A DNA stretch of 64,000 nt, taken from the NCBI GenBank assembly GCA_963779415.1, contig CAVZYA010000001.1:1504001-1568000 (forward strand), in the 5' to 3' direction. The stretch's first letter is position 1. The number at the start of each line of letters is the position of its first letter. Origin of the DNA: an uncultured Acidobacteriota bacterium. Lineage in GTDB: Bacteria; Acidobacteriota; Thermoanaerobaculia; UBA5066. Positions 22,609-35,642 of this stretch are shown here, one piece after another. The notes below the pieces were generated by a model. It saw only the letters and a program-made list of their open reading frames with translations, made no database searches and was not told the origin of the DNA. Both the position numbers and the translations under genes were made by a program.

Positions 22609-24249
<1,641 letters not shown>

Positions 24250-24498
24250 GGTGCGGTCACTTTTTGCGAGTCGGCCCGAGATGTCAAGAGTCTGTTCGTC
24301 CGGCGTCCTCGCCGGCCTGGAATCGCGCGGCCTCGTCATGGAGGAGCAGCGGCGCCACGAGGAAGACGAGATCCGGAGACATTGAGTCCGATTCTCAAAA
24401 TCCCGTTGAGGAAAGCCGCCTCGCGGGGGTAGACTCTTCAACGTGCCGGATCGCGGAGGAGCCGCGCCGACGACGAGTTTCTCGAAGGGAGATCAAAG

Positions 24499-24831
24499 AT
24501 GAAAATGAAGTCGAAGCTGTTCGTCGCCATCGCTCTCGTGGCCGCTCTCGGGCTCGCCTCCGCGGCTTTCGCCGCGGACGTGACGCTCACCGGGAATGTC
24601 GCCTGCGCCAAATGCACCCTGAAGAAGGCCGACGCCAAGGAGTGCCAGGACGTTCTCGTCGTCGCCGGAGCGAACGGCGCCACGACCGAGTACTACATCG
24701 TCAAGAACGCCGTCCTGAAGGATTTCGGCCACACGTGCACGGGCGAGAAGGCGGTCACGGTCACCGGCACCGTCTCCGAGAAGGACGGGAAGAAGTGGAT
24801 CACCCCGTCCAGGATGAACGCCAAGAGCTGA
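24499..24831 (+). CDS. Small secreted Cys/His-containing protein (DUF6370-like)
   Basis: Signal peptide, TLTGNVACAKC..CQ..HTC and VTVTGTV; SD upstream. Confidence 0.7.
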   Translation: MKMKSKLFVAIALVAALGLASAAFAADVTLTGNVACAKCTLKKADAKECQDVLVVAGANGATTEYYIVKNAVLKDFGHTCTGEKAVTVTGTVSEKDGKKWITPSRMNAKS

Positions 24832-24834
24832 CGA

Positions 24835-26352
24835 TCAGACCGTCCGCATGCTCCCCGTCCGGAGGAGGTTCCGGTGCCAGCCGAAGGCCTCCTCGAGGAG
24901 GTGCGGGGTGTGCTTGCCGGGAGAGGTGAGAAGAGCGCGGCGGAAGTAGTCCCGGAGCGCCGGCCGGTAGTCGGGGTGGGCGCAGTTTTCGATGATCCGC
25001 TCGGCCCGCTGCTTGGGCGCGAGGCCCCGGAGATCCGCGAGGCCCTGCTCGGTCACGATGACGTGGACGTCGTGCTCCGTGTGGTCGACGTGGGTGACCA
25101 TCGGAATGATGCAGGAGACCGTCCCCTTCTTGGCCGTCGAGGGGGTCATGAAGAAGGAGATGTAGGCGTTCCGGGCGAAGTCGCCGGAGCCCCCGATCCC
25201 GTTCATGATCGCGGTCCCGTTCACGTGGGTCGAGTTGACGTTCCCGTAGATGTCGGCCTCGATCATCCCGTTCATGGAAAGGCAGCCGAGTCGCCGGATC
25301 AGCTCGGGGTGGTTCGAGATCTCCTGCGGGCGGAGGATGATGGCGCTCCGGTACCGGTCCATCTGCGCGCTGAGCTCGTCGTTCTTCTGCGGGCTGAGCG
25401 AGAAGGCCGTGGCCGAGGCGACGAGCATCTTCCCGGAGCGGATCAGCTCCAGCATCCCGTCCTGAAGCACCTCCGTATAGGAGGTCAGGTGGTCGAACGG
25501 CCCTTCCTGGAGGCCGAAGAGGACGGCGTTCGCGATGTTCCCGACGCCGGACTGGATCGGCAGCAGCTCGTGCGGAAGGCGCCCCTTCTTCACCTCGCTC
25601 CCGAGGAACTCCAGGATGTGGCCGGCGATCCGCCGCGACGCGTCGTCCGGAAGCGCGAACGGCGTGTTCCGGTCGGGCGCGTTGGTCTCGACGATGGCGA
25701 CGATCTTCTCCTGCGGGCAGTGGAAGTACGGCGTCCCGATCCGGTCCGACGGGTGGATGAGCGGGATCGGCCTCCGGTGGGGCGGGAGCGCGAACCCCTC
25801 GTAGATGTCGTGCATCCCCTCGAGCTTCTCGGACTGCGCGGAGTTGACCTCCAGGATCACCTTGTCGGCGTAGTCGAGCCAGACCTTGTTGTTGCCGACC
25901 GAGGACGACGGGATCAGGTCGCCGTTCGGAAGGATCCCCGTCACCTCGACGACCGCGAGGTCGAGCTTGCCGAGAAAGCCGGAGCGGACGAAGGCCCCGA
26001 CGTGGGAGAGGTGGATGTCGATGTACTCCATCTCTCCCGCGTTGATCTTCTTCCGGCAGACCGGGTCCGACTGGTACGGAAGCCGGAGCTCGACGCCGTC
26101 CACCATCGCGAGGGCGCCGTCCAGCTCGGGGGCCGTGGACGCTCCCGTCCAGATGCTGATCCGGAACTTCTCGCCGCGCAGGTTGGCGTCCATGATCCGC
26201 TTGGCCAGCGCCAGCGGAACCGCCTTCGGGTATCCGGCGCCCGTGAAACCGCTCATCCCGACGGTGACCCCCGCCGGGATCAGGGCCGCGGCTTCCTCGG
26301 CCGTCACGACCTTGTCGAGCAGGGCCTTGTTCAGAATCCGTGCGCCATCCAT
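24835..26352 (-). CDS. Acetyl-CoA hydrolase / succinate CoA-transferase (AarC/Ach1 family)
   Basis: SGFTGAGYPKAVP, QSGVGNIANAV, LRPQEISNHPE and GIGGSGDF. Confidence 0.93.
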   Translation of the reverse strand: MDGARILNKALLDKVVTAEEAAALIPAGVTVGMSGFTGAGYPKAVPLALAKRIMDANLRGEKFRISIWTGASTAPELDGALAMVDGVELRLPYQSDPVCRKKINAGEMEYIDIHLSHVGAFVRSGFLGKLDLAVVEVTGILPNGDLIPSSSVGNNKVWLDYADKVILEVNSAQSEKLEGMHDIYEGFALPPHRRPIPLIHPSDRIGTPYFHCPQEKIVAIVETNAPDRNTPFALPDDASRRIAGHILEFLGSEVKKGRLPHELLPIQSGVGNIANAVLFGLQEGPFDHLTSYTEVLQDGMLELIRSGKMLVASATAFSLSPQKNDELSAQMDRYRSAIILRPQEISNHPELIRRLGCLSMNGMIEADIYGNVNSTHVNGTAIMNGIGGSGDFARNAYISFFMTPSTAKKGTVSCIIPMVTHVDHTEHDVHVIVTEQGLADLRGLAPKQRAERIIENCAHPDYRPALRDYFRRALLTSPGKHTPHLLEEAFGWHRNLLRTGSMRTV

Positions 26353-26537
26353 CGCTCTTCTCCCTTCCGTCTCCCCGGGACCGCGGGGGCTGGAGGCGGA
26401 GCTTACGTCCCTCGGGGAGAAACCGTGCCGGCTGAAACGACGAGGCGCGCGGACCGTGGGATCGGGTGGACGTTTCAGCAGACCTGGCCCCGGCTTTTGG
26501 AAATGGGATCGAGCCTTCCTCACTTGAAGGTACGATT

Positions 26538-26570
26538 GCCTGTCTGAATTCGACCCCCGAAAAGGTACTT
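26538..26570 (+). promoter_or_regulatory. Candidate ECF-sigma promoter, copy 1 (probably leaderless mRNA)
   Basis: GCCTGTCTGAA-N18-ACTT, 5 nt upstream of the sigma ATG with no SD; the same motif recurs at 28519. Confidence 0.65.
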
Positions 26571-26575
26571 AGTTC

Positions 26576-27091
26576 ATGGATGTCGTTCCCGAGCCGCCGA
26601 AGGCCAGCGTAGAGGTGGCCGAGGCTCTCATGGCCGACCGCGAGCGGCGTCGCCGGCTCTGCGCGTATGCCCGGGTCAGGTTCGGGATCGACATGGAGGA
26701 CGCGGAGGACGTGCTGCAGGAGACGGCGATGGACGTGATGCGGGCGGTCGGCCCGATCCTCCGTCCGGAGGGGTTCGTCTTTCAGGTCTTTCACGCCAAA
26801 TGCTGCCGGCATCTGCGCGGAAGGCCGGCCCGGCGGGCCGTCGTGGCTCTGGCGGACGCTCACGGCGCCGTGCTCGCGCAATCGCCGGTCGGCCCCGGGT
26901 CAGAAGAGATTCTGGCGCTCCAGCAAGGACTGTCACGGATCTCGGCCAAATGTCGGCAGCTACTCCGGGCGCATTACCTCGAGGGGAAGAGCCTCCGGGA
27001 AACCGCGGACGAGATGTCCGTGGCCGGAAGCGGCGTCTGGAACCTCATCAACCGGTGCTTGCGGAGACTGAAGCAATGTCTGCAGCCCTGA
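26576..27091 (+). CDS. ECF sigma-70 factor
   Basis: Region 2 EDAEDVLQET and region 4 CRQLLRAHYLEGKSLRETADEM...NRCLRRL; 171 aa. Confidence 0.9.
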   Translation: MDVVPEPPKASVEVAEALMADRERRRRLCAYARVRFGIDMEDAEDVLQETAMDVMRAVGPILRPEGFVFQVFHAKCCRHLRGRPARRAVVALADAHGAVLAQSPVGPGSEEILALQQGLSRISAKCRQLLRAHYLEGKSLRETADEMSVAGSGVWNLINRCLRRLKQCLQP

Positions 27092-28503
27092 ACCACCTCG
27101 ACGATTGCACCCTTCTGCGCCACGTCGCCAGGGACCTGAGCGACTTCGAGGAGAGGGCGGCGCGGCGACACCTCCTTTCGTGCGACGTCTGCCGGAAGAA
27201 TCTAGAGAAGATCGAGGAACTCGATCACCTCCTCCGGGAAGCGGGTCCCGAGCTGTTCGGGGAAACGGAAATGGAGGGGCTGCCTTCCGGCGACCCCTTT
27301 TGCCTCCGGCCCGTACCTCGTGCACTGACGAAGCCGGCCGCCGCCGCCCAAGGCCGGGCGCGGGCGACCGAGTGTCTCGCCGCGGCGAAGGAGGCCTCCC
27401 GGAGAAAGAACTCGCTTCTCTCCTGCCGGGACGCGGGCGAGAAGGTTCTTCGGAACGCCTTCGATGGGTTGCGACTTTCCGAGCCGACAGACCGGTACAC
27501 CCTCGGTTATGCGCTCGAGGAGGCGGTTTCGCGGATGGTCGAAGCGCCAGCCCTCTGGCTCCGGTTCGCCGAGGCTGCCGTCTCCCGGCTGGCCGCGGAG
27601 CCGAAGGGCCGCCGATCGCCCTCGGTGGCCGATTCGGCCTACCCCCTCGCCGACCTCGTCGGCCGTGCGCACCTCCTGGCCGGCATCGCCCGGAACTGGA
27701 CCGGGGAGTTCGAGAGGGGTGGGCGCGACCTTCTCCTCGCCTACCGGGCCTTTGCAAGGGGAACCGCCTCCGAGGTCGAGCTGGCGCGCGTCGAGCTGGC
27801 CGAGGCCACGCGCCGGTCGTTCGTCGAGCGGGCGCCCGAGGGGCTGATCCTGGCCTCGCGGGCCGCGCAGACGTTCTCCGACTTCGGGATCGCGGACGAG
27901 GAGGCGCGGGCCCTGGCTGTGAAGGGGCTGGCGCTCTCGCGCGATGGACGCGGCGAAGAGGCCCTTCTCGCCTACCGGGAGGCGCTGCCCGCCTTCGAGC
28001 GACTCGGCCTCTGGAACGCCTACGTCTCGACGCTGCAAAACGTCGGGGCCACCCTGATGCACCTCGGCCGCCTCGCCGAGGCCCGGCGCGAGTACGCCCG
28101 GGCTCTCAGGAACGTCTCGCGCACCGAGCGTCCCGCCGTCCACGCCTTCATCCGGCGGAACCTCGCCCGGACGCTCTTCGAGGCCGGGAAATTCGCCCAG
28201 GCGGCCCTTGGGTTCGGTTCCGCCACGTCTCTCTTCGAACAGCAGGGGGCGACCGCCGACGCCCTCCTGACGCTCCTCTACCAGATAGAGTCCTTCGCCC
28301 GCGCCGGGGCCGGCGTGAAGGCGAGGTCCCTGATGGCCGGCTTTGAGCGGCGCGTCGGGGAGCTGGGCGTCCTGGACGCTTCGACCCTGAAGGAGCTCGC
28401 CGCCGCCCTGTCGGGCCGCAATCCGGATCTCGCCTCTCTCGTCCGCCTGCGCGACGGGGTCGAGGAGACTCTGCGAGATCGCCTCGAGAGGTCCGCCGGC
28501 TAG
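27076..28503 (+). CDS. Soluble zf-HC2 (ZAS) anti-sigma domain plus TPR protein
   Basis: ATG at 27076 overlaps the sigma 3' end. HLLSCDVC fits HxxxCxxC. TPR-like helices (EALLAYREAL, QNVGATLMHLGRLAEARREY, RNLARTLFEAG). No TM segment seen. Confidence 0.82.
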   Translation: MSAALNHLDDCTLLRHVARDLSDFEERAARRHLLSCDVCRKNLEKIEELDHLLREAGPELFGETEMEGLPSGDPFCLRPVPRALTKPAAAAQGRARATECLAAAKEASRRKNSLLSCRDAGEKVLRNAFDGLRLSEPTDRYTLGYALEEAVSRMVEAPALWLRFAEAAVSRLAAEPKGRRSPSVADSAYPLADLVGRAHLLAGIARNWTGEFERGGRDLLLAYRAFARGTASEVELARVELAEATRRSFVERAPEGLILASRAAQTFSDFGIADEEARALAVKGLALSRDGRGEEALLAYREALPAFERLGLWNAYVSTLQNVGATLMHLGRLAEARREYARALRNVSRTERPAVHAFIRRNLARTLFEAGKFAQAALGFGSATSLFEQQGATADALLTLLYQIESFARAGAGVKARSLMAGFERRVGELGVLDASTLKELAAALSGRNPDLASLVRLRDGVEETLRDRLERSAG

Positions 28504-28518
28504 AAAAAGAATCCACCC

Positions 28519-28551
28519 GCCTGTCTGAAAACACCCCCGGACCGGCCACTT
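28519..28551 (+). promoter_or_regulatory. Candidate ECF-sigma promoter, copy 2
   Basis: GCCTGTCTGAA-N18-ACTT, with ACCCCCG also shared inside the spacer; upstream of the 92-aa ORF. Confidence 0.65.
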
Positions 28552-28630
28552 TACGGAATGGAAGACGTCCGTAGAGCGCTCTCACCCGGCTTCCACGATT
28601 TCCCGGGAGCGGGAAATCAAGGAGGAGATA

Positions 28631-28909
28631 GTGAGAACACGTCCGGCCCTGCTGCTTTCATGCGCTCTTTTTCTGGCGCCTTCGGCCGCCCTCTACGCCG
28701 CTGACGCCCCCCGGCCCGTCCCTCCGGCGGTAACGGCCCCCAAGCCGGCCATCGGCGGCATCCTTCTGGACTTCGGCCAGTGGCTGAGGGATCGAGCCAG
28801 GGACCTGGGCAACCCCTTCGGGGCCCTGAGCAAGACGACCAGTCCGACCGCCCCCAAGCCTGTCCCTCTGGGGGATTGCGTCGATCGGTCGCACTGCCCG
28901 ATCGGATGA
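28631..28909 (+). CDS. Small secreted precursor protein (putative signalling peptide)
   Basis: SD GGAGG at 28621-28625 lies 5 nt before the GTG. Sec-type signal MRTRPALLLSCALFLAPSAALYA and C-terminus GDCVDRSHCPIG. Confidence 0.7.
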   Translation: MRTRPALLLSCALFLAPSAALYAADAPRPVPPAVTAPKPAIGGILLDFGQWLRDRARDLGNPFGALSKTTSPTAPKPVPLGDCVDRSHCPIG

Positions 28910-28942
28910 GGGTCCCGGCACCTGAATGAGACGAATCGGTCT

Positions 28943-30580
28943 GTGAAAGGCGACACCCGGATTCCCCCCGGCGCCGAGGAGGAGGGGGGCTGCCAGGCCG
29001 CAGCGCACAGCCCCCCGCCCCCGGGCGAATCTCCGACCCGGCCCGACAGCGCCACCCGCTTCCAGGCCCTCGTGAGCGGCGGGCTGGACGCTTTCTTCGT
29101 CTTCCGCAGCGTGCGCGACGAGAAGGGACGGATCGTCGACTTCGAGCTGTTCGACCTGAACAGACGAGGCGAGGAGCGCCTCGGCTTGACGCGGAACCAG
29201 CTCGTCTCGTCGCGCCTGCGCGAGATCCTGCCGGCGTTCCCTCCCGGCTTTCAGGAGAAGTGCCTCCGCGTGGCCGCCTCCGGCGAGATGCTGGAGGAGG
29301 AGGTCGCCCTCACCTCCAGCGGGCCCCAGGCGTCGTGGCTTCAGCTTCAGGTGGTCCGGATGGAGGACGGGGTCGGCGTGTCCCTGCGCGACATCAGCGA
29401 GCGAAAGCGGCTGGAGCGGCAGCTTCTCCACTCACAGAAAATGGAGGCCGTGGGCCGGCTGGCCGGCGGCGTCGCCCACGACTTCAACAACCTTCTGACG
29501 ACGATCCTCGGCTACAGCGAGCTGATGCTGATCAAGCTGCCCGAGTCGAGCCCGGCGCGCGCCGACGTCGAGGAGATCCTGAAGGCCGGCCAGCGGGCCG
29601 TGGGCCTCACCCGCCAGCTCCTTGCCTTCAGCCGCAAGCAGGTCGTCGAGCCGAAGGTCGTCAACCTGAACGCCGTCATCGAGGAGGCCGCCAAGATGCT
29701 GCGCCGCCTCATCGGCGAGGACGTCGACCTCGCGACGATTCTCGATCTCTCGCTCGGGACCGTCCGGGTCGATCCGGGCCAGATGGAACAGGTCCTGATG
29801 AACCTGGCCGTCAACAGCCGCGACGCCATGCCACGGGGCGGCCGGCTCACGCTGGAGACCTGGAACGTCACCATCGACGCCTCGGCCTCGCGCCTTCACT
29901 TCGGCGCCCCGCCGGGGGCCTACGTCCTTCTGGCCGTCAGCGACACCGGGACGGGGATGGACGTCGAGACCCGCTCCCACCTCTTCGAGCCCTTCTACAC
30001 GACCAAGGAGAAAGGGAAGGGGACGGGGCTGGGCCTGGCCACCGTCTACGGCATCGTCAAGCAGAGCGACGGCTACATCTTCGTCTACAGCGAGCCGGGT
30101 AAGGGGACGACCTTCAAGATCTACCTGCCGCGCGTGGAAGGCGTCGGGACGGACGCCGCCGCCGCCGTCCCGGCCTCGGCCGTGGCCGACGGAAAGGAGA
30201 CCCTCCTCCTCGTCGAGGACGAGGAAGCGGTCCGCCGCCTCATGCACCGCAGCCTCAGGGAACGCGGCTACAACGTCCTCGACGCACCGAGCGGCGAGGC
30301 CGCCCTCGCCGTCGCCACCTCCCACCCCGGGCCGATCGACCTCCTCATCACCGACGTCGTCCTCACCGGCGTCTCGGGCAAGAGCCTGGCCACGCTCCTC
30401 CTCACCTCTCGCCCCAAACTGAAGCTCCTCTTCATCTCCGGCTACACCGACGACACCGTCGTCCACCACGGCGTCCTCGCCAAGGAAGAGGCCTTCCTCC
30501 AGAAGCCCTTCACCCCCGACGCCCTCGCCCGAAGGGTCCGGGAGGTGCTGGATGCGAAACCGGCCGGAGCAGCCGGATGA
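28943..30580 (+). CDS. Hybrid PAS-histidine kinase-receiver protein (CckA-like architecture)
   Basis: [40 protein letters not shown], and receiver LLVED...LLITD...QKPF. Confidence 0.95.
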
Positions 30581-30889
30581 CACTCGCTCCGTCCGGCGCC
30601 CCAGCTCCGCAGCCGCCGAGGGGTCACTCGCTCTAGAACGAACCGCCGGCAGGAGGCGGGAAGCGACCGTCACTACCGAAGTCGGCAGGTCATTCAAAAG
30701 TAAATTGCGGTGCGACACTAAGGCCCGCTCAATACACCTAACGACTTCATCCCGCGATGGTGTAGTTTTGTTCGATGGCTCCCATCACATGCGTTGCCTG
30801 CGTCGGCCCTTCCTACGGGAGCCGGCCTTCGGCGTTACCAGCGTGAATTACGATTTCGCGGCGCTGCCCGGGAGTGCCGAGGCACCACG

Positions 30890-32428
30890 GTGAACCCTGG
30901 ACTGCGTGTCTTCGTCAGCTCTGTCCAGGAAGAACTGAAGGACGAGCGCCTCATCGTCCAGAACCTTCTAATACCGACTCGTATCTAGCTGCGCATTGCG
31001 CGCCGGTTCTCTATGAATACGAGCCGGCATCTTCGGAAAAGGCCCTGGAGGGCTGCCTCAGGGCGCTCGAAGGCTGCAACGCGGTCATCCTCATAATCGG
31101 CATCCGTTACGGGAAATCGGTAGGCGGACTTTCCAGTACGCACTCTGGTATAGGCGCGCAAAGGAATCGGGCTGTTGATATTCGGTTCATTAGCGGTAAT
31201 GCAGCGTTGAGCGCGAGGCGGAGACGGCTTTATTCTTGAATGAGGTGGATTCTGACTGCCTCAAGTACAAGCGCTTCGGCGACGTGGTCCAGCTCCCAGA
31301 AAGAGGTACGTGCTGCGCTCGTAAAACTCCTTCGAGAGAAGTTTGGCATCGTCCCAACCACAGATGAGAACGAGGTCGCAGCTCAGACCATCGAGGCGAC
31401 CTCACTCTTCGAATCTCAACCGCTGGAGCGAATCCCTTGGGTCGACCTCGACCACTCTGTCGCGCGCCGGCTTGTTGCCTCAGCCGAGGGGCTGGATGCC
31501 AACAGCCTTTCAGACGCGCAGGTACTCGCCGGGTCTTCGGTTCGTGGCCTCGTCTGGAGGAAATCCGAATCGGGCGAGTCTTTTGCGACTGCGGCTGGCA
31601 TCGTGCTTCTCGCGAGGGATCCGTCAGCGGTGTTTCCGCAATGCCGCGTCCTCGCGGACGCGTACCGCGGTTCCGAAGCGGACGGCGCGCCCCGCGACCA
31701 TGAGGACCTTCGGGGCCCGATGTCGGTCGTCATCGAACGTGCGCTCGCCTTCATCGACCGAAACACACGGCACCCGATGCGGGTAGTGGGATTCAATCGA
31801 GTTCGTCTTGACGAGTACCCGGAAGAAGCGCTGCGTGAGGCCTTAGTCAACGCTGTGGCACATAGACGTTACGACGACGCTGGCCGCAAGGTGCTTCTCG
31901 AGGTCTTCAGTGACCGCGTCGTCGTCCTGAGCCCCGGGCTTCCGCCTAGTCCGATCACGCTTCCGAACCTCCGGAATGGAAAGTGCCGACCCTGCTCACG
32001 GAATCAGATTCTCGCTCAGTGCATGTCTTTCTTCCTCCGATCGAGGTGCGCGGAAGCGGCATCCGGCGGAGCGTGACAAGATGCTGAAAGGGCTTTAACC
32101 GCTGTACTTGTCATCCGGTTATTTCTTGACGTGTCGAGGGCCCGCGATGACTGAGCGAATAGTGCCGGAGAAACTGCTCGTCGTGACCCCGTCGGTCGAG
32201 GCGCGGTTGAGCGACCGGCAAAAGAGGATCCTCGGACAGGCCCTTCGAGCTGGCTCCGTCAGCCGGCGATGGTGCGTAGCGGAGTTCGGGGTGGCTAATG
32301 ACACGGCTGGCCGCGACCTCAAGTCGCTGACAGAACGTGGTTTACTTGTGCCGCAGGGGAAGGGACGAGCCGTCCGATACGTGCCCCCACTCGTATCGGA
32401 ATCGACCGGCAATCGACCGGCTCGGTGA
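30890..32428 (+). pseudogene. DUF4062 + RecG-C/HATPase_c_4 + winged-HTH protein, multiply frameshifted
   Basis: Fragments in three frames: RVFVSSVQEELKDER...ILIIGIRYG (DUF4062-like), EYPEEALREALVNAVAHRRY..SPG..RN (HATPase_c_4), and LSDRQKRIL..TAGRDLKSL..GKGRAVRY (wHTH). Confidence 0.75.
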
Positions 32429-32488
32429 GGAAACCGACAGATGACGAATCGACCGAGAACCGACCGACCGATCGCCCAAATCGACCGA
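32400..32488 (+). repeat. Array of short AA(T/C)CGACCG repeats
   Basis: AATCGACCGGC twice in tandem (32400-32421), plus copies near 32447, 32458 and 32479 and a variant at 32431. Confidence 0.7.
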
Positions 32489-32648
32489 TGAGAGCAGACG
32501 GCTTCCCACGCTCTGATGGCGCCGAGGCTGCGCCGCAAGTTCGGGAGCTTCAGTTCCCGGAGGCGGGTGACGGGCCGATGGTAGCCGCATATGGCAGCGA
32601 CCGGCACGTTGGCCGCCTCGAAGACGAAACACGGGAGGGGAACATCGG

Positions 32649-33846
32649 ATGACCGACGAACAGACCAACCAGGGCAGCAGGGCGGCGCTTCGCGTCCTCT
32701 CGGCTGCGACCGGCGGCAACTGGGTGCCGTGCTCCCCGCTCCCAGAAGATGACGAGGTCACGCGTCTCCAGGCGACCAAGAATGGTGAGAGGCTTGATCA
32801 GCTCCTGACGGACATCTTGGTTTCCCAGAATCTTGCGGTCTTAGCTGGCCTCGGTACAACCATGTGCGTAAGAGCGCCGGGCGCCGCAACCTCGCCGCCA
32901 TCAATGGCAGATCTGTGGCACGCGGCCGCTACGGAAGCAGGAGCAGCATTCGAGAACATCAAGTTGAAGGTCCGCTACACAGCCCCTGCCGAGGGCGACA
33001 ATATCGAGGTGCTCCTCTCCAATGCCAGCTGGCCAGGCCCTTGATCCGTCTGAGGAAGTCAACGCGTTCATCACCGCGACAGAGGCGCTTATCGTAAGCC
33101 GATGTCGGTTTGTCTCACCGACCACTGAACGAACGACAAACAAAGCGTTCCTTCGTAAGGTAGCACGCCGATCCACTCGACTGCCGCGAACCAAAGTATT
33201 TACCACAAACTACGACCTCTCCTTTGAGACCGCGGGAAGCCATGCGCGGTTTACAATCGTCGACGGGTTCTCTCACACCCAGCTTCAGGAATTCGACGGC
33301 AACTACTTCACCTACGACCTCGTTCGCAGAGAACCGGACCGTGAGATCCCGGACTATATTCCCAACGTCTTCCACCTGCACAAAATCCACGGTTCTGTCG
33401 ACTGGGAGCTTAGGGATGATCAGGTCATCAAGACCACTGACGCTTCGAAGCCCCTCATCATTTATCCACGTCACAGCAAGTTCGAGGCGTCATACAACCA
33501 ACCCTTCATCGAGATGATGTCGCGGTTCCAGCTCGCACTCCGACAGCCGAACACCGGTCTGTTCGTGCTGGGGTCCGGCTTCAATGACACTCACATCTGG
33601 CAGCCGTTGCTGGCGGCGGTTCGCTCCAATGTAAGTCTAAAGGCCGTGGTCGTCGACCCGGCGTTGCCGCAGTCCACGAAACCCCCGGTTACGGAGATCA
33701 AGAAGCTCATCGCGGCAGGAGACTCGCGACTTGTTCTGATCGCCGGCGGGTTCGAAGCCTTCGTCCCGGTCCTGCCCGATCTCGTCGTGGCCACGGAGGA
33801 GGAGCGCCACCGAGAGCGACTCCGTTCGAAGGACACGACTCGGTGA
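32649..33846 (+). CDS. SIR2-family (SIR2_2) NADase of a SIR2-HerA system, frameshifts near 33020-33035
   Basis: AVLAGLGT..PSMADLW, VFTTNYDLSFE, DGFS, HKIHGSVDW and GFNDTHI; stop codon coupled to herA (GTGA). Confidence 0.88.
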
Positions 33847-35642
33847 GTTCAACCCTTCCTTTTTATCCCTTCGATCCCCAGCGTTGCATCGGAACGATCT
33901 CGGAAATAGGACCATCTTCCGCTACAGCCAACCTGCCGAACGCCAGCAAGCCCGACGGCCAGTCGCTCTACGGCGATAGGCTTGGGGCCGGTGAAGTCGG
34001 GGAGTTCGTCGTCGTGGAGTGCCGTGATGTGGCCATCTTCGGGCGCATTATTTCCGTTCGTCTGCCGGAACGGGAGCGTCGGAGTGTGGAGGCAGAGCTC
34101 GGCGTTCGACAGGATGCTCATCCGCTAGGCACGATCCAGCTCCTAACGACGATCTCGCTGAGGGGCGGCGAGGTACTCGGGGGTATCGCGCGGTACCCGC
34201 GACTTGGCAGCAAGGTCTATGCCGCTCATCCGGCCCTGGTTAAGTGGGTAGCAGAGTCGACCCAGCGCGCTAAACATCTAAAGAACCCGATTTCGCTGGA
34301 TCTCGCTTCTCTTCCGACCGCCAACGGCACGATCGTGAGTATCACTCCCGAACGCATCTTTGGCCGCCACTGCGCCGTCCTCGGCGCTACAGGCGGTGGG
34401 AAGAGCTGGACCGTGGGCCGCTTGATAGAGGAGCTTACTCGGTGCAAAGGAAAGGTCATCCTTTTTGATCCGACCGGCGAGTTCCACACCTTTTCAACTG
34501 GAGTTGACCATGTTTACATTGGCGCTGGCCAAGCAGAGCCAGCCACGGCTGGAGAGGTCGTGGTGCCTTACCGGGAACTCACAGAGGCTGATCTGTTCGC
34601 GCTGTTCAAACCCAGCGGTCAAACGCAGGCGCCAAAGCTCCGCGCAGCGATGAAGAGCCTCAAGTTGGCGAAATTGGCGGGCCCCCGATTCGCCCCTGCA
34701 GGGATTGTAATCAAGGCCGAACAGAAGAAGGAGAGAATCGAACGCGAGTATGCCAAGTATGCGGCGGCAATTGAGAGTCCCGTGGCTGATTTTGAAATCT
34801 CGAAGCTCACGCAACAGATCCTCGAGGAGTGTGTATGGCCCTCCGGCGGAAGTCAATCGGCTCCTGATTTCGGTGTCTGGGGAAGGGCTAACGAGTCCGA
34901 GAAGAGCTACTGCATCACCCTTATCACTCGCATCGAGGACATGCTGCAGGCGGTCGAGCTCGGGTGCGTGTTTCAGCCTGGCGGGAAGCCCCGGCTGACG
35001 TCTGCGATTGACGCCTTCTTGAAAGATTCAGGGAGAAGCGTACTGCGGGTGTCGCTGAAGTACCTACCGTTCGCCCACAATGCCCGCGAGATTGTCGCCA
35101 ATGCTGTCGCTCGCTACCTACTGTCTCTGGCGAGAACCGGTCGGTTTAGAAGCCAGCCATTGCTCGTCGTCTTGGATGAGGCTCACCAGTTTCTGGACAA
35201 GAACCTTGGTGACGAGAGCACAAGGTATCCCCTCGACGCGTTTGAATTAATCGCGAAGGAGGGGCGCAAGTTCTCGTTGAGTATCTGCATCGCGACTCAG
35301 AGGCCCCGAGACATTCCAGAAGGAGTTCTGAGCCAAATGGGTACCCTGATCGTCCATCGGCTCATCAACGACAAAGATCGGGAGGTTGTGGAGCGTGCAT
35401 CGGGCGACATCGACCGTTCAGCGGCTGCGTTCCTACCCACGCTGGGACCTGGCCAGGCAGTGATAATCGGAGTGGACTTTGCAGTACCGCTCTCGATCCA
35501 AGTCTCGCCCCCTGACCAAAAGCCTGACTCGCAAGGACCGAACTACCAGAAATGCTGGGGGATGAGCGAAGGGCCGGCGACCGATCGACAGGAGGCCGGG
35601 CCGGACGTCGAACTAGGGCCGGGGGACGAACCGTTGTCGTGA
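33843..35642 (+). CDS. herA: HerA-family ATPase (SIR2-HerA defence)
   Basis: HAS-barrel-like N-terminus, RHCAVLGATGGGKS, VLDEAH, IAKEGRKF, ATQRP and HRLINDKD. Confidence 0.92.
   Translation: MSSTLPFYPFDPQRCIGTISEIGPSSATANLPNASKPDGQSLYGDRLGAGEVGEFVVVECRDVAIFGRIISVRLPERERRSVEAELGVRQDAHPLGTIQLLTTISLRGGEVLGGIARYPRLGSKVYAAHPALVKWVAESTQRAKHLKNPISLDLASLPTANGTIVSITPERIFGRHCAVLGATGGGKSWTVGRLIEELTRCKGKVILFDPTGEFHTFSTGVDHVYIGAGQAEPATAGEVVVPYRELTEADLFALFKPSGQTQAPKLRAAMKSLKLAKLAGPRFAPAGIVIKAEQKKERIEREYAKYAAAIESPVADFEISKLTQQILEECVWPSGGSQSAPDFGVWGRANESEKSYCITLITRIEDMLQAVELGCVFQPGGKPRLTSAIDAFLKDSGRSVLRVSLKYLPFAHNAREIVANAVARYLLSLARTGRFRSQPLLVVLDEAHQFLDKNLGDESTRYPLDAFELIAKEGRKFSLSICIATQRPRDIPEGVLSQMGTLIVHRLINDKDREVVERASGDIDRSAAAFLPTLGPGQAVIIGVDFAVPLSIQVSPPDQKPDSQGPNYQKCWGMSEGPATDRQEAGPDVELGPGDEPLS

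Follow-up and report, generated by a model that had tools for sequence, protein, structure and literature searches.

The stretch of DNA considered here (the window) comprises 64,000 nucleotides of contig CAVZYA010000001.1 (positions 1,504,001 to 1,568,000, forward strand; assembly GCA_963779415.1) from an uncultured bacterium of the Acidobacteriota (Thermoanaerobaculia, UBA5066). It carries a cassette of three consecutive plus-strand genes, encoding a sigma factor of the extracytoplasmic function (ECF) type, a soluble anti-sigma factor in which a zinc-associated anti-sigma (ZAS) domain is followed by tetratricopeptide repeats (TPR), and a small exported protein (Table 1). The succession of the three genes, the overlap of the first two, the N-terminal zinc motif, the TPR-like helices and the lack of a transmembrane segment had been described in an initial annotation of the window, and all these details were recovered with the open reading frames (ORFs), the Pfam matches and the hydropathy profile. 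Judged from its genes and their relatives, the cassette appears to be a real and undescribed variant of sigma/anti-sigma control, with a new anti-sigma architecture.

Table 1. Features of the sigma/anti-sigma/peptide cassette and the adjoining kinase gene (positions are those of the window).
Feature	Position	Strand	Remarks
Promoter 1, sigma operon (TGTCTGAA-N18-ACTT)	26541..26570	+	Ends 5 nt ahead of the ATG
ECF (group IV) sigma factor, 171 aa	26576..27091	+	TIGR02937, Pfam regions 2 and 4
Soluble anti-sigma factor, 475 aa, N-terminal HHCC zinc domain and C-terminal TPR/helical-repeat domain of ~350 aa	27076..28503	+	Profiles, alignment
Promoter 2, copy of promoter 1, ahead of the peptide gene	28522..28551	+	Motif and relatives
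Presumed 5' untranslated region (UTR) of the peptide mRNA, with GAGCGCTC at 28574-28581 and the Shine-Dalgarno sequence AGGAGGAG at 28620-28627	28552..28630	+	
Small exported protein, 92 aa, GTG start	28631..28909	+	69-member family, no Pfam/NCBIfam family
Soluble hybrid histidine kinase, PAS-HisKA-HATPase-REC	28943..30580	+	Outside the conserved core

The product of the first gene matched the NCBIfam model TIGR02937 for sigma70-ECF proteins (50.3 bits, cut-off 42.9) and Pfam Sigma70_r4_2 (26.5, cut-off 25.7), while Sigma70_r2 scored just below its cut-off (23.2 vs. 24). The protein is small and consists of regions 2 and 4 of sigma-70 only, which places it among the ECF factors, and none of the curated ECF subfamily models of NCBIfam matched it at cut-off. 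Its N-terminus (MDAEPRTPR...) is conserved as protein in relatives, as is the ATG-GAT start. In 28 of 32 genome loci the ZAS-TPR gene is immediately preceded by a sigma homolog, the other four being locus L007, described below, and three partial loci that start within the anti-sigma gene. In the window the anti-sigma ORF begins at the ATG at 27076 and overlaps the sigma gene by 16 nt, and its translation is coupled to that of the ECF sigma factor. Synteny between the loci of Thermoanaerobaculia relatives is limited to the three genes.

The zinc motif of the anti-sigma factor reads H7-x24-H32-x3-C36-x2-C39, and the accessible text of PMC6432622 defines the ZAS motif as H/C-x24/25-H-x3-C-x2-C. 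Homologs were found in 41 cases, and in the alignment of the 37 full-length proteins the four ligands are invariant (37/37). Pfam TPR_12 was matched by all 37 family members, with 36.4 bits for the window protein (cut-off 30.1), and zf-HC2 by 21 of the 37 (E<=0.01); the window protein alone scored 13.5 bits against zf-HC2, below the cut-off of 22.2. No membrane helix was found in the protein, whose highest 19-residue Kyte-Doolittle window reaches 0.99. The family profile matched the anti-sigma domain of ChrR (2q1z_B) over residues 5-88 (E 1.8e-5), and matched DdvA, RslA and RsiW as well. The initial reading of the zinc motif as the mark of a ZAS domain is thus upheld by the invariant ligands and by the ChrR-type profile match, and the N-terminal half appears to belong to the ZAS class I anti-sigma family, with ChrR as its closest solved relative. 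The C-terminal TPR domain occupies the position of the sensor in ChrR-type proteins. With NprR, a peptide receptor, its profile showed only a weak similarity (E 0.0047), which is generic to TPRs. By the names of the matches, the family was placed in the Thermoanaerobaculia/Holophagales of the Acidobacteriota.

The third gene encodes a protein that begins with two Arg residues followed by a hydrophobic stretch (Kyte-Doolittle value 1.91), forming a Sec-type signal at about residues 1-24, so that the mature product has ~68 residues. A conserved amphipathic helix (~43-60) is followed by a Pro-rich linker and by a C-terminal Cys loop, C83-x2-R86-x-H88-C89-P90-I91-G92 (28877-28906; tail GDCVDRSHCPIG), and the protein ends in ...HCPIG. 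The possibility that this is a lipoprotein signal was considered and rejected, its Cys not being conserved. A single-sequence search yielded seven homologs with 60-82% identity, and a profile search extended the family to 69 proteins of 46-199 aa, most of them of 91-107 aa; when 1.84 billion cluster representatives were searched exhaustively with the profile, only 26 clusters matched at E<=0.001. Common to nearly all members are a signal peptide of the Sec type, in which most show a clear A-x-A site, a helix following the pattern LD[LF]ARWLxRRL, the Pro-rich linker and the tail C-x(0-7)-[DES]-R-x-[HQK]-C-P-x-G, which typically ends right at the stop codon. The members named by any source are all called "hypothetical", and 68 of the 69 have no Pfam domain, the single bearer (PF08530) being a fusion to unrelated sequence. 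Pfam and NCBIfam gave no match (E<=1 or E<=0.1) for the window peptide, for a homolog from the g5 clade or for four of the repeat-type mini-ORFs described below. The 92-aa ORF had been proposed as a real gene with a strong Shine-Dalgarno sequence and a Sec signal, and the 69 homologs, together with a Shine-Dalgarno sequence in all loci, agree with this; the proteins appear to form a new, unnamed family.

The initial annotation had suggested checking whether a small ORF recurs downstream of homologs of the ZAS-TPR protein. Of the 32 loci with an anti-sigma relative in the genomes collected, 14 are followed by the peptide gene in the same orientation. On metagenome contigs, where loci were found with the anti-sigma alignment, the peptide is present in 11 of 55 loci, always in the same position and on the same strand. 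A search at the level of the class (301 genomes) gave convincing peptide matches (E<1e-6) in six genomes, all of the family to which the window belongs; the 16 further matches listed reached only 18-22 bits, many of them in long frames or with stops, and were treated as noise. Within that family, all 63 genomes were searched with both profiles, a set that overlaps with the 32-locus collection, so the counts are not independent. After merging two rows of one frameshifted gene and dropping a 22-bit row with three stops, 20 distinct peptide genes were left, 16 of which follow a strong ZAS-TPR match in the same orientation at a distance of 124-1026 nt; two lie at contig ends, and the last two are considered among the objections below. 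In a genus with only weak, paralogous anti-sigma matches the peptide gene was found in none of 29 (0/29).

The distribution is resolved by a tree of 61 full-length anti-sigma proteins, from which partial and near-duplicate rows were left out. The subclade with sigma1-type partners, which includes the window, holds 19 rows, and 18 of them have the peptide gene downstream; in this orthologous subclade, therefore, the small ORF does recur beside its regulator. A subclade of sigma2-type pairs (8 rows, 6 informative) has no peptide directly downstream, clade A (33 rows, 29 of them with at least 450 nt of downstream sequence) has none, and neither has a single outlier. A tree of 28 rows reproduced the clade split. 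Moreover, a crude finder for a Shine-Dalgarno sequence plus signal peptide returned the exact ORF in 11 of 11 peptide loci, and across 11 clade-A loci it returned one unrelated ORF. The sole exception in the sigma1-type subclade, L007, is also without the sigma gene.

Some of these loci deserve a description of their own. L007 (1689-4864) is the genome locus closest to the window, with an anti-sigma factor 71% and a neighboring acetyl-CoA hydrolase 90% identical; a gene for a 551-aa multi-pass membrane protein stands in place of the sigma gene, of which a short 3' remnant is kept, there is no peptide gene, and the ORF that comes next is phage-baseplate-like. The record is labelled Acidithiobacillales, at odds with its relatives. 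Several sigma2-type pairs (L023, L079, L088, L019) lie in tandem directly upstream of a peptide-bearing sigma1-type cassette, so that two pairs share one peptide gene; one genome differs in that a diverged peptide (loop CPVPLER...) is encoded 4.4 kb upstream of its sigma2-type pair.

The peptide gene is linked to the sigma operon by its promoter as well. The sequence GCCTGTCTGAA occurs in identical form at 26538 and 28519, and at both sites ACTT follows exactly 18 nt after TGTCTGAA. Two matches of TGTCTGAA-N18-ACTT in the window compare with 0.04 expected, and none of 100 shuffles reached two; in the whole genome (4,359,815 bases) these are the only two matches, also with a relaxed pattern, and a reversed control pattern had three. 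In relatives the end of the element is separated by 5-6 nt from the ATG of the sigma gene and by 73-80 nt from the start codon of the peptide gene. Since a strict regular expression undercounted diverged sites (9/26 peptide and 6/17 sigma regions), mismatches were counted instead over the 11 consensus positions of TGTN[GT]GA[AG]-N18-[AG]C[CT]T, with control windows for comparison. At least 10 of the 11 positions were found in 13 of 17 regions upstream of sigma genes and in 16 of 26 upstream of peptide genes (24 of 26 with at least 9), as compared to 3 of 102 control windows. Of the bipartite motif reported initially, the duplication holds; its "ACCCCCG" half is not shared by relatives, in which the second half that is conserved is the [AG]C[CT]T element.

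As the promoter abuts the start codon of the sigma gene, the sigma mRNA is probably leaderless. The element occurs only twice in the genome, and the regulon would therefore comprise the peptide gene and the sigma operon, perhaps together with the hybrid kinase, as no terminator was found in the 34-nt gap after the peptide gene. The earlier proposal that the sigma factor transcribes both itself and the peptide is consistent with the shared and conserved promoter, whose use by this very sigma factor we infer. In the presumed 5' UTR, GAGCGCTC stands at a fixed position in 14 of 15 aligned loci, L013 having GGGCGCTC; genome-wide this palindrome is not rare (237 observed vs. 174 expected), and its fixed position is the only notable aspect. 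A CCUC stretch in the 5' UTR could base-pair with the Shine-Dalgarno sequence in a weak consensus fold (-7.15 kcal/mol), and Rfam gave no match within 26400-29000.

Promoters of this type were also observed in another genome, G323, as CTGTCTGAA-N18-CACTT (loci L066-L071), where they precede, among others, a gene for a large secreted protein and two leaderless frames, one of 146 aa and one for a receiver-domain protein. A conserved element, CACCGAAGGGCACGGAGTG, lies 60-70 nt after two of the G323 sites and, in the form CACCCAAGGGCACGGAGTG, after one site in a third genome (G148, locus L072). The CACCGAAGGGCACGGAGTG element is absent from the genome of the window and may be a small RNA or a leader.

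A second type of small ORF was found beside more distant relatives of the anti-sigma factor. Paralogous sigma/ZAS-TPR pairs are present on another contig of the same genome, and one of these anti-sigma paralogs has 26% identity to the anti-sigma factor of the window. It is followed after about 170 nt, in the same orientation, by a 51-aa ORF preceded by a Shine-Dalgarno sequence (L006:7934-8086, minus strand; G000:C2 ~1292.9-1293.1 kb). The N-terminus of this ORF is hydrophobic and aromatic, and a 10-residue unit ending in VPVG is repeated in it as three perfect tandem copies; the underlying 30-nt repeat is 100% identical over 3.1 copies. Nine more paralogous loci (L128-L136) were picked from the weaker, near-full-length family-level matches, and mini-ORFs of 44-56 aa occur ~150-175 nt downstream in 10 of 10 paralogous loci, that of this genome included. 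At the nine further loci they carry one to four units ending in TPIG, VPVG, VPLG, GPIG, GPIS or GPIN (P-[IVL]-[GSN]). No such mini-ORF was found in 24 clade-A loci, and none in 87 loci of other sets, bar one spurious match; open frames ending in P[IVL]G make up 0.06-0.10% of those in this genome. The repeat-type mini-ORFs contain neither Cys nor His and have no classical Sec n-region, and they might act inside the cell. For the paralogous locus of this genome and for the clade-A sigma genes the search gave no shared promoter, and the conserved residues specific to clade B cluster at 352-366 of the anti-sigma factor and are not common to the paralog with the repeat peptide. Two unrelated types of precursor beside homologous TPR proteins thus share a C-terminus of the type P-[IV]-G, an agreement not readily accounted for by target genes of an arbitrary kind, and this common tail is the best available argument for a functional tie between tail and TPR domain.

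The closest known counterpart of the sigma/anti-sigma pair is ChrR/sigma-E of Rhodobacter (Cereibacter) sphaeroides (PDB 2q1z, 2z2s), where a soluble anti-sigma factor likewise combines an N-terminal class I domain bearing an H-x24-H-x3-C-x2-C site with a separate C-terminal sensor, and where its gene is coupled to that of an autoregulated ECF sigma factor. ChrR has a cupin domain, however, whereas the cassette described here has a TPR array of ~350 aa and a dedicated gene for an exported peptide, and belongs to the Acidobacteriota. With the RRNPP(A) systems (Rap-Phr, NprR-NprX, PlcR-PapR, AimR-AimP) it has in common a cytoplasmic TPR protein encoded beside a small precursor exported by a Sec-type signal, a conserved extreme C-terminus of that precursor and an autoregulatory logic. 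In RRNPP(A) the output is nevertheless an N-terminal helix-turn-helix domain or a phosphatase/protein-binding surface, rather than an anti-sigma domain acting on an ECF sigma factor, the hosts are Bacillota and their phages (the family is described as Gram-positive in the text available from the literature) rather than a diderm lineage, the tails are diversified rather than invariant, and the precursor is processed to a C-terminal oligopeptide that Opp re-imports, whereas in the present system the genes give no evidence of processing or import. Given the differences in output module and lineage, the cassette is not a member of RRNPP but at most a functional analogue.

Other comparisons concern the sigma factor and its regulon. 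NrsF, the anti-sigma factor of the SigF/NrsF-MrpX system of Azospira suillum, is said to be a membrane protein. That system resembles the cassette in pairing an ECF sigma factor and its anti-sigma factor with a small regulon centered on a small, strongly induced periplasmic peptide (PMC4436054, in the part available); its peptide, MrpX, is rich in methionine and has a reductase as its partner, and the anti-sigma factor has no TPR, in contrast to the soluble ZAS-TPR protein and the lack of a linked enzyme here. In ECF42-type sigma factors a TPR module also controls an ECF sigma factor, according to the accessible parts of PMC7826278 and PMC8999054, but it is fused to the sigma factor and there is no anti-sigma factor, while here the TPR domain is carried by a separate ZAS protein. 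In the available text of a review of non-canonical ECF regulation, three mechanisms are named for the control of soluble anti-sigma factors (conformational change, partner switching and a mechanosensing complex), TPRs are treated only as extensions of ECF42 sigma factors, "peptide" is used once and "quorum" is absent (PMC8999054); the ECF re-classification, in its accessible text, refers to TPRs in connection with ECF42 and with a FecR-like protein of ECF267 (PMC7826278). Literature searches returned no description of the architecture sigma/ZAS-TPR/exported peptide, in agreement with the initial statement that no characterized system has it, and the supplementary group tables of PMC7826278, which lie outside the text available, may list the pair.

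In light of these results, the pairing of sigma and anti-sigma factor, the autoregulation and the control of the peptide gene by the sigma factor are highly probable on genomic grounds. The anti-sigma factor would hold the sigma factor inactive, and the free sigma factor would transcribe its own operon, as a leaderless mRNA, and the peptide gene. The circuit as a whole, including recognition of the peptide by the TPR domain and a feedback loop closed by the peptide, is put forward more tentatively, with a probability somewhat short of even. TPR domains commonly bind peptide termini, and the P-I-G tail would be the cognate partner of the TPR domain here, so that the level of peptide would feed back on the release of sigma. 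Two candidate routes can be envisaged: the peptide may be exported, possibly trimmed, and re-imported in the manner of an autoinducer, or it may be recognized before export, in a mechanism coupled to secretion. For the latter there are precedents in FlgM/sigma-28 and in the TPR chaperone IpgC with MxiE, where the state of a cytoplasmic regulator depends on the export of a small partner and where IpgC binds secreted substrates; they use dedicated type III export whereas the peptide here has a Sec signal, and the likeness considered is one of function. The former route, in which the exported Cys-loop tail of a diderm phylum would re-enter the cell, be read by the TPR domain and free the sigma factor, leading to more sigma factor and more peptide, is on its own unlikely. 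The same holds for its corollary, that RRNPP-like logic was invented independently here with a sigma factor at its output end, forming one branch of a larger Acidobacteriota superfamily of ZAS-TPR proteins and "PxG-tail" peptides with several unrelated types of precursor.

Several observations weigh against a peptide that is read by the TPR domain. The topology is adverse, as the peptide carries an export signal and the TPR protein is cytoplasmic, and the synteny across loci revealed no transporter, importer, processing or protease gene in the conserved cassette; three OppA-type genes elsewhere in the genome only permit import. The tail is nearly invariant over the 69 members, unlike diversified pheromones and pherotypes, and the helix, as a second conserved element of the mature protein, suggests that the whole protein acts rather than a precursor of a shorter peptide. 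The association is not universal either: of the 20 peptide genes, one lies 4.4 kb upstream of its pair and one is alone, with no pair within 12 kb and with its second Cys replaced, and neither clade A (29 informative rows) nor the sigma2-type subclade (6 informative rows) has an adjacent peptide, so that a large sister clade of sigma/ZAS-TPR pairs appears to work without such a peptide. Adjacency of a target to its regulator would alone explain the co-inheritance. The promoter type occurs seven times in G323, vs. one match for the control pattern, indicating that the circuit is not closed everywhere. The P-[IV]-G tail motif, moreover, is short and was spotted after the fact, and the dN/dS of the peptide gene (~0.5, with near-saturated dS) is uninformative.

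The main rival is a redox or metal response in which the peptide is output only: the zinc site of the ZAS domain, or the TPR domain, would respond to a stress signal in the cytoplasm, for example a thiol-oxidative, singlet-oxygen or metal stress. The released sigma factor would raise its own synthesis and that of the peptide, a small periplasmic Cys/His peptide serving as a sacrificial redox sink or metal buffer that never meets the TPR domain. The HHCC spacing is that of ChrR and RslA, and sites of this type are highly reactive to oxidants according to the accessible text of PMC6432622; SigF/NrsF-MrpX offers the precedent of a small regulon around a periplasmic scavenger peptide (PMC4436054, in the part available). 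An invariant tail, Cys-x-x-Arg-x-His-Cys-Pro, is more in keeping with a conserved chemistry than with a private signal, and the adjacency argument applies here too. Such a model, however, leaves the P-[IVL]-[GSN] tail of the unrelated, Cys- and His-free mini-ORFs beside distant paralogs unexplained and the 350-aa TPR domain without a role, and no reductase or partner enzyme is linked to the cassette, unlike MrpX/YedY. We consider it rather unlikely.

The peptide could also be an effector, that is, a secreted bacteriocin-like or surface-active peptide or a precursor resembling ribosomally synthesized and post-translationally modified peptides (RiPPs), with the TPR domain receiving its input from another protein, for example the neighboring hybrid kinase. 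The amphipathic, Arg-rich and hence cationic helix and the terminal Cys loop, which could form a disulfide, in the mature part would suit this role, and the tandemly repeated units of the paralogous mini-ORFs resemble multi-core precursors. Kinase homologs with 47-59% identity adjoin five sigma/ZAS-TPR loci that have no peptide (L022, L028, L029, L031, L033), in addition to the window cassette, and the hybrid kinase may thus be an alternative partner of the anti-sigma family. No kinase homolog stands beside any peptide-bearing locus except the window, however, the cassette has no conserved neighbor for maturation, immunity or export (maturase, immunity or export genes), and no known peptide family matches, which makes an effector improbable. 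That the 92-aa ORF is no gene, and the duplicated motif the product of chance or a repeat remnant, is scarcely credible: long spurious frames are indeed common in high-GC DNA, the ORF is overlapped by a 257-aa frame in antisense and dN/dS is only moderately below 1, but the comparative data contradict it with 69 homologs conserving start, signal peptide, helix and tail, a strong Shine-Dalgarno sequence in all loci and motif statistics that exclude chance.

The surroundings of the cassette contain further genes. Upstream, a DUF6370 protein (24499-24831), small (110 aa), exported and with two CxxC-like pairs, is encoded between a malate synthase (22609-24441) and an acetyl-CoA hydrolase/transferase (24835-26523), both on the minus strand. 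Downstream, a stretch resembling a defense island (30874-35642) comprises a DUF4062 gene (30874-31239), an HATPase_c_4 protein (31240-32076) and a SIR2_2 protein (33022-33846) whose gene overlaps that of a HerA-type ATPase (33843-35642), the last two forming a pair that resembles SIR2-HerA.

ECF sigma factors are among the main signaling devices of bacteria, and if the TPR sensor is indeed tied to an exported peptide of its own, it would represent a fourth type of input for soluble anti-sigma factors and the first candidate for receptor-mediated cytoplasmic sensing of peptides outside Gram-positive bacteria. The lineage is uncultured, and reconstruction guided by sequence is therefore the sole route to its signaling biology; the cassette is small, with three genes and two promoters, and appears as a closed loop in this genome, so that the whole can be rebuilt in Escherichia coli. 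Even as a mere output, the peptide would define a new, unnamed family alongside a new anti-sigma architecture.

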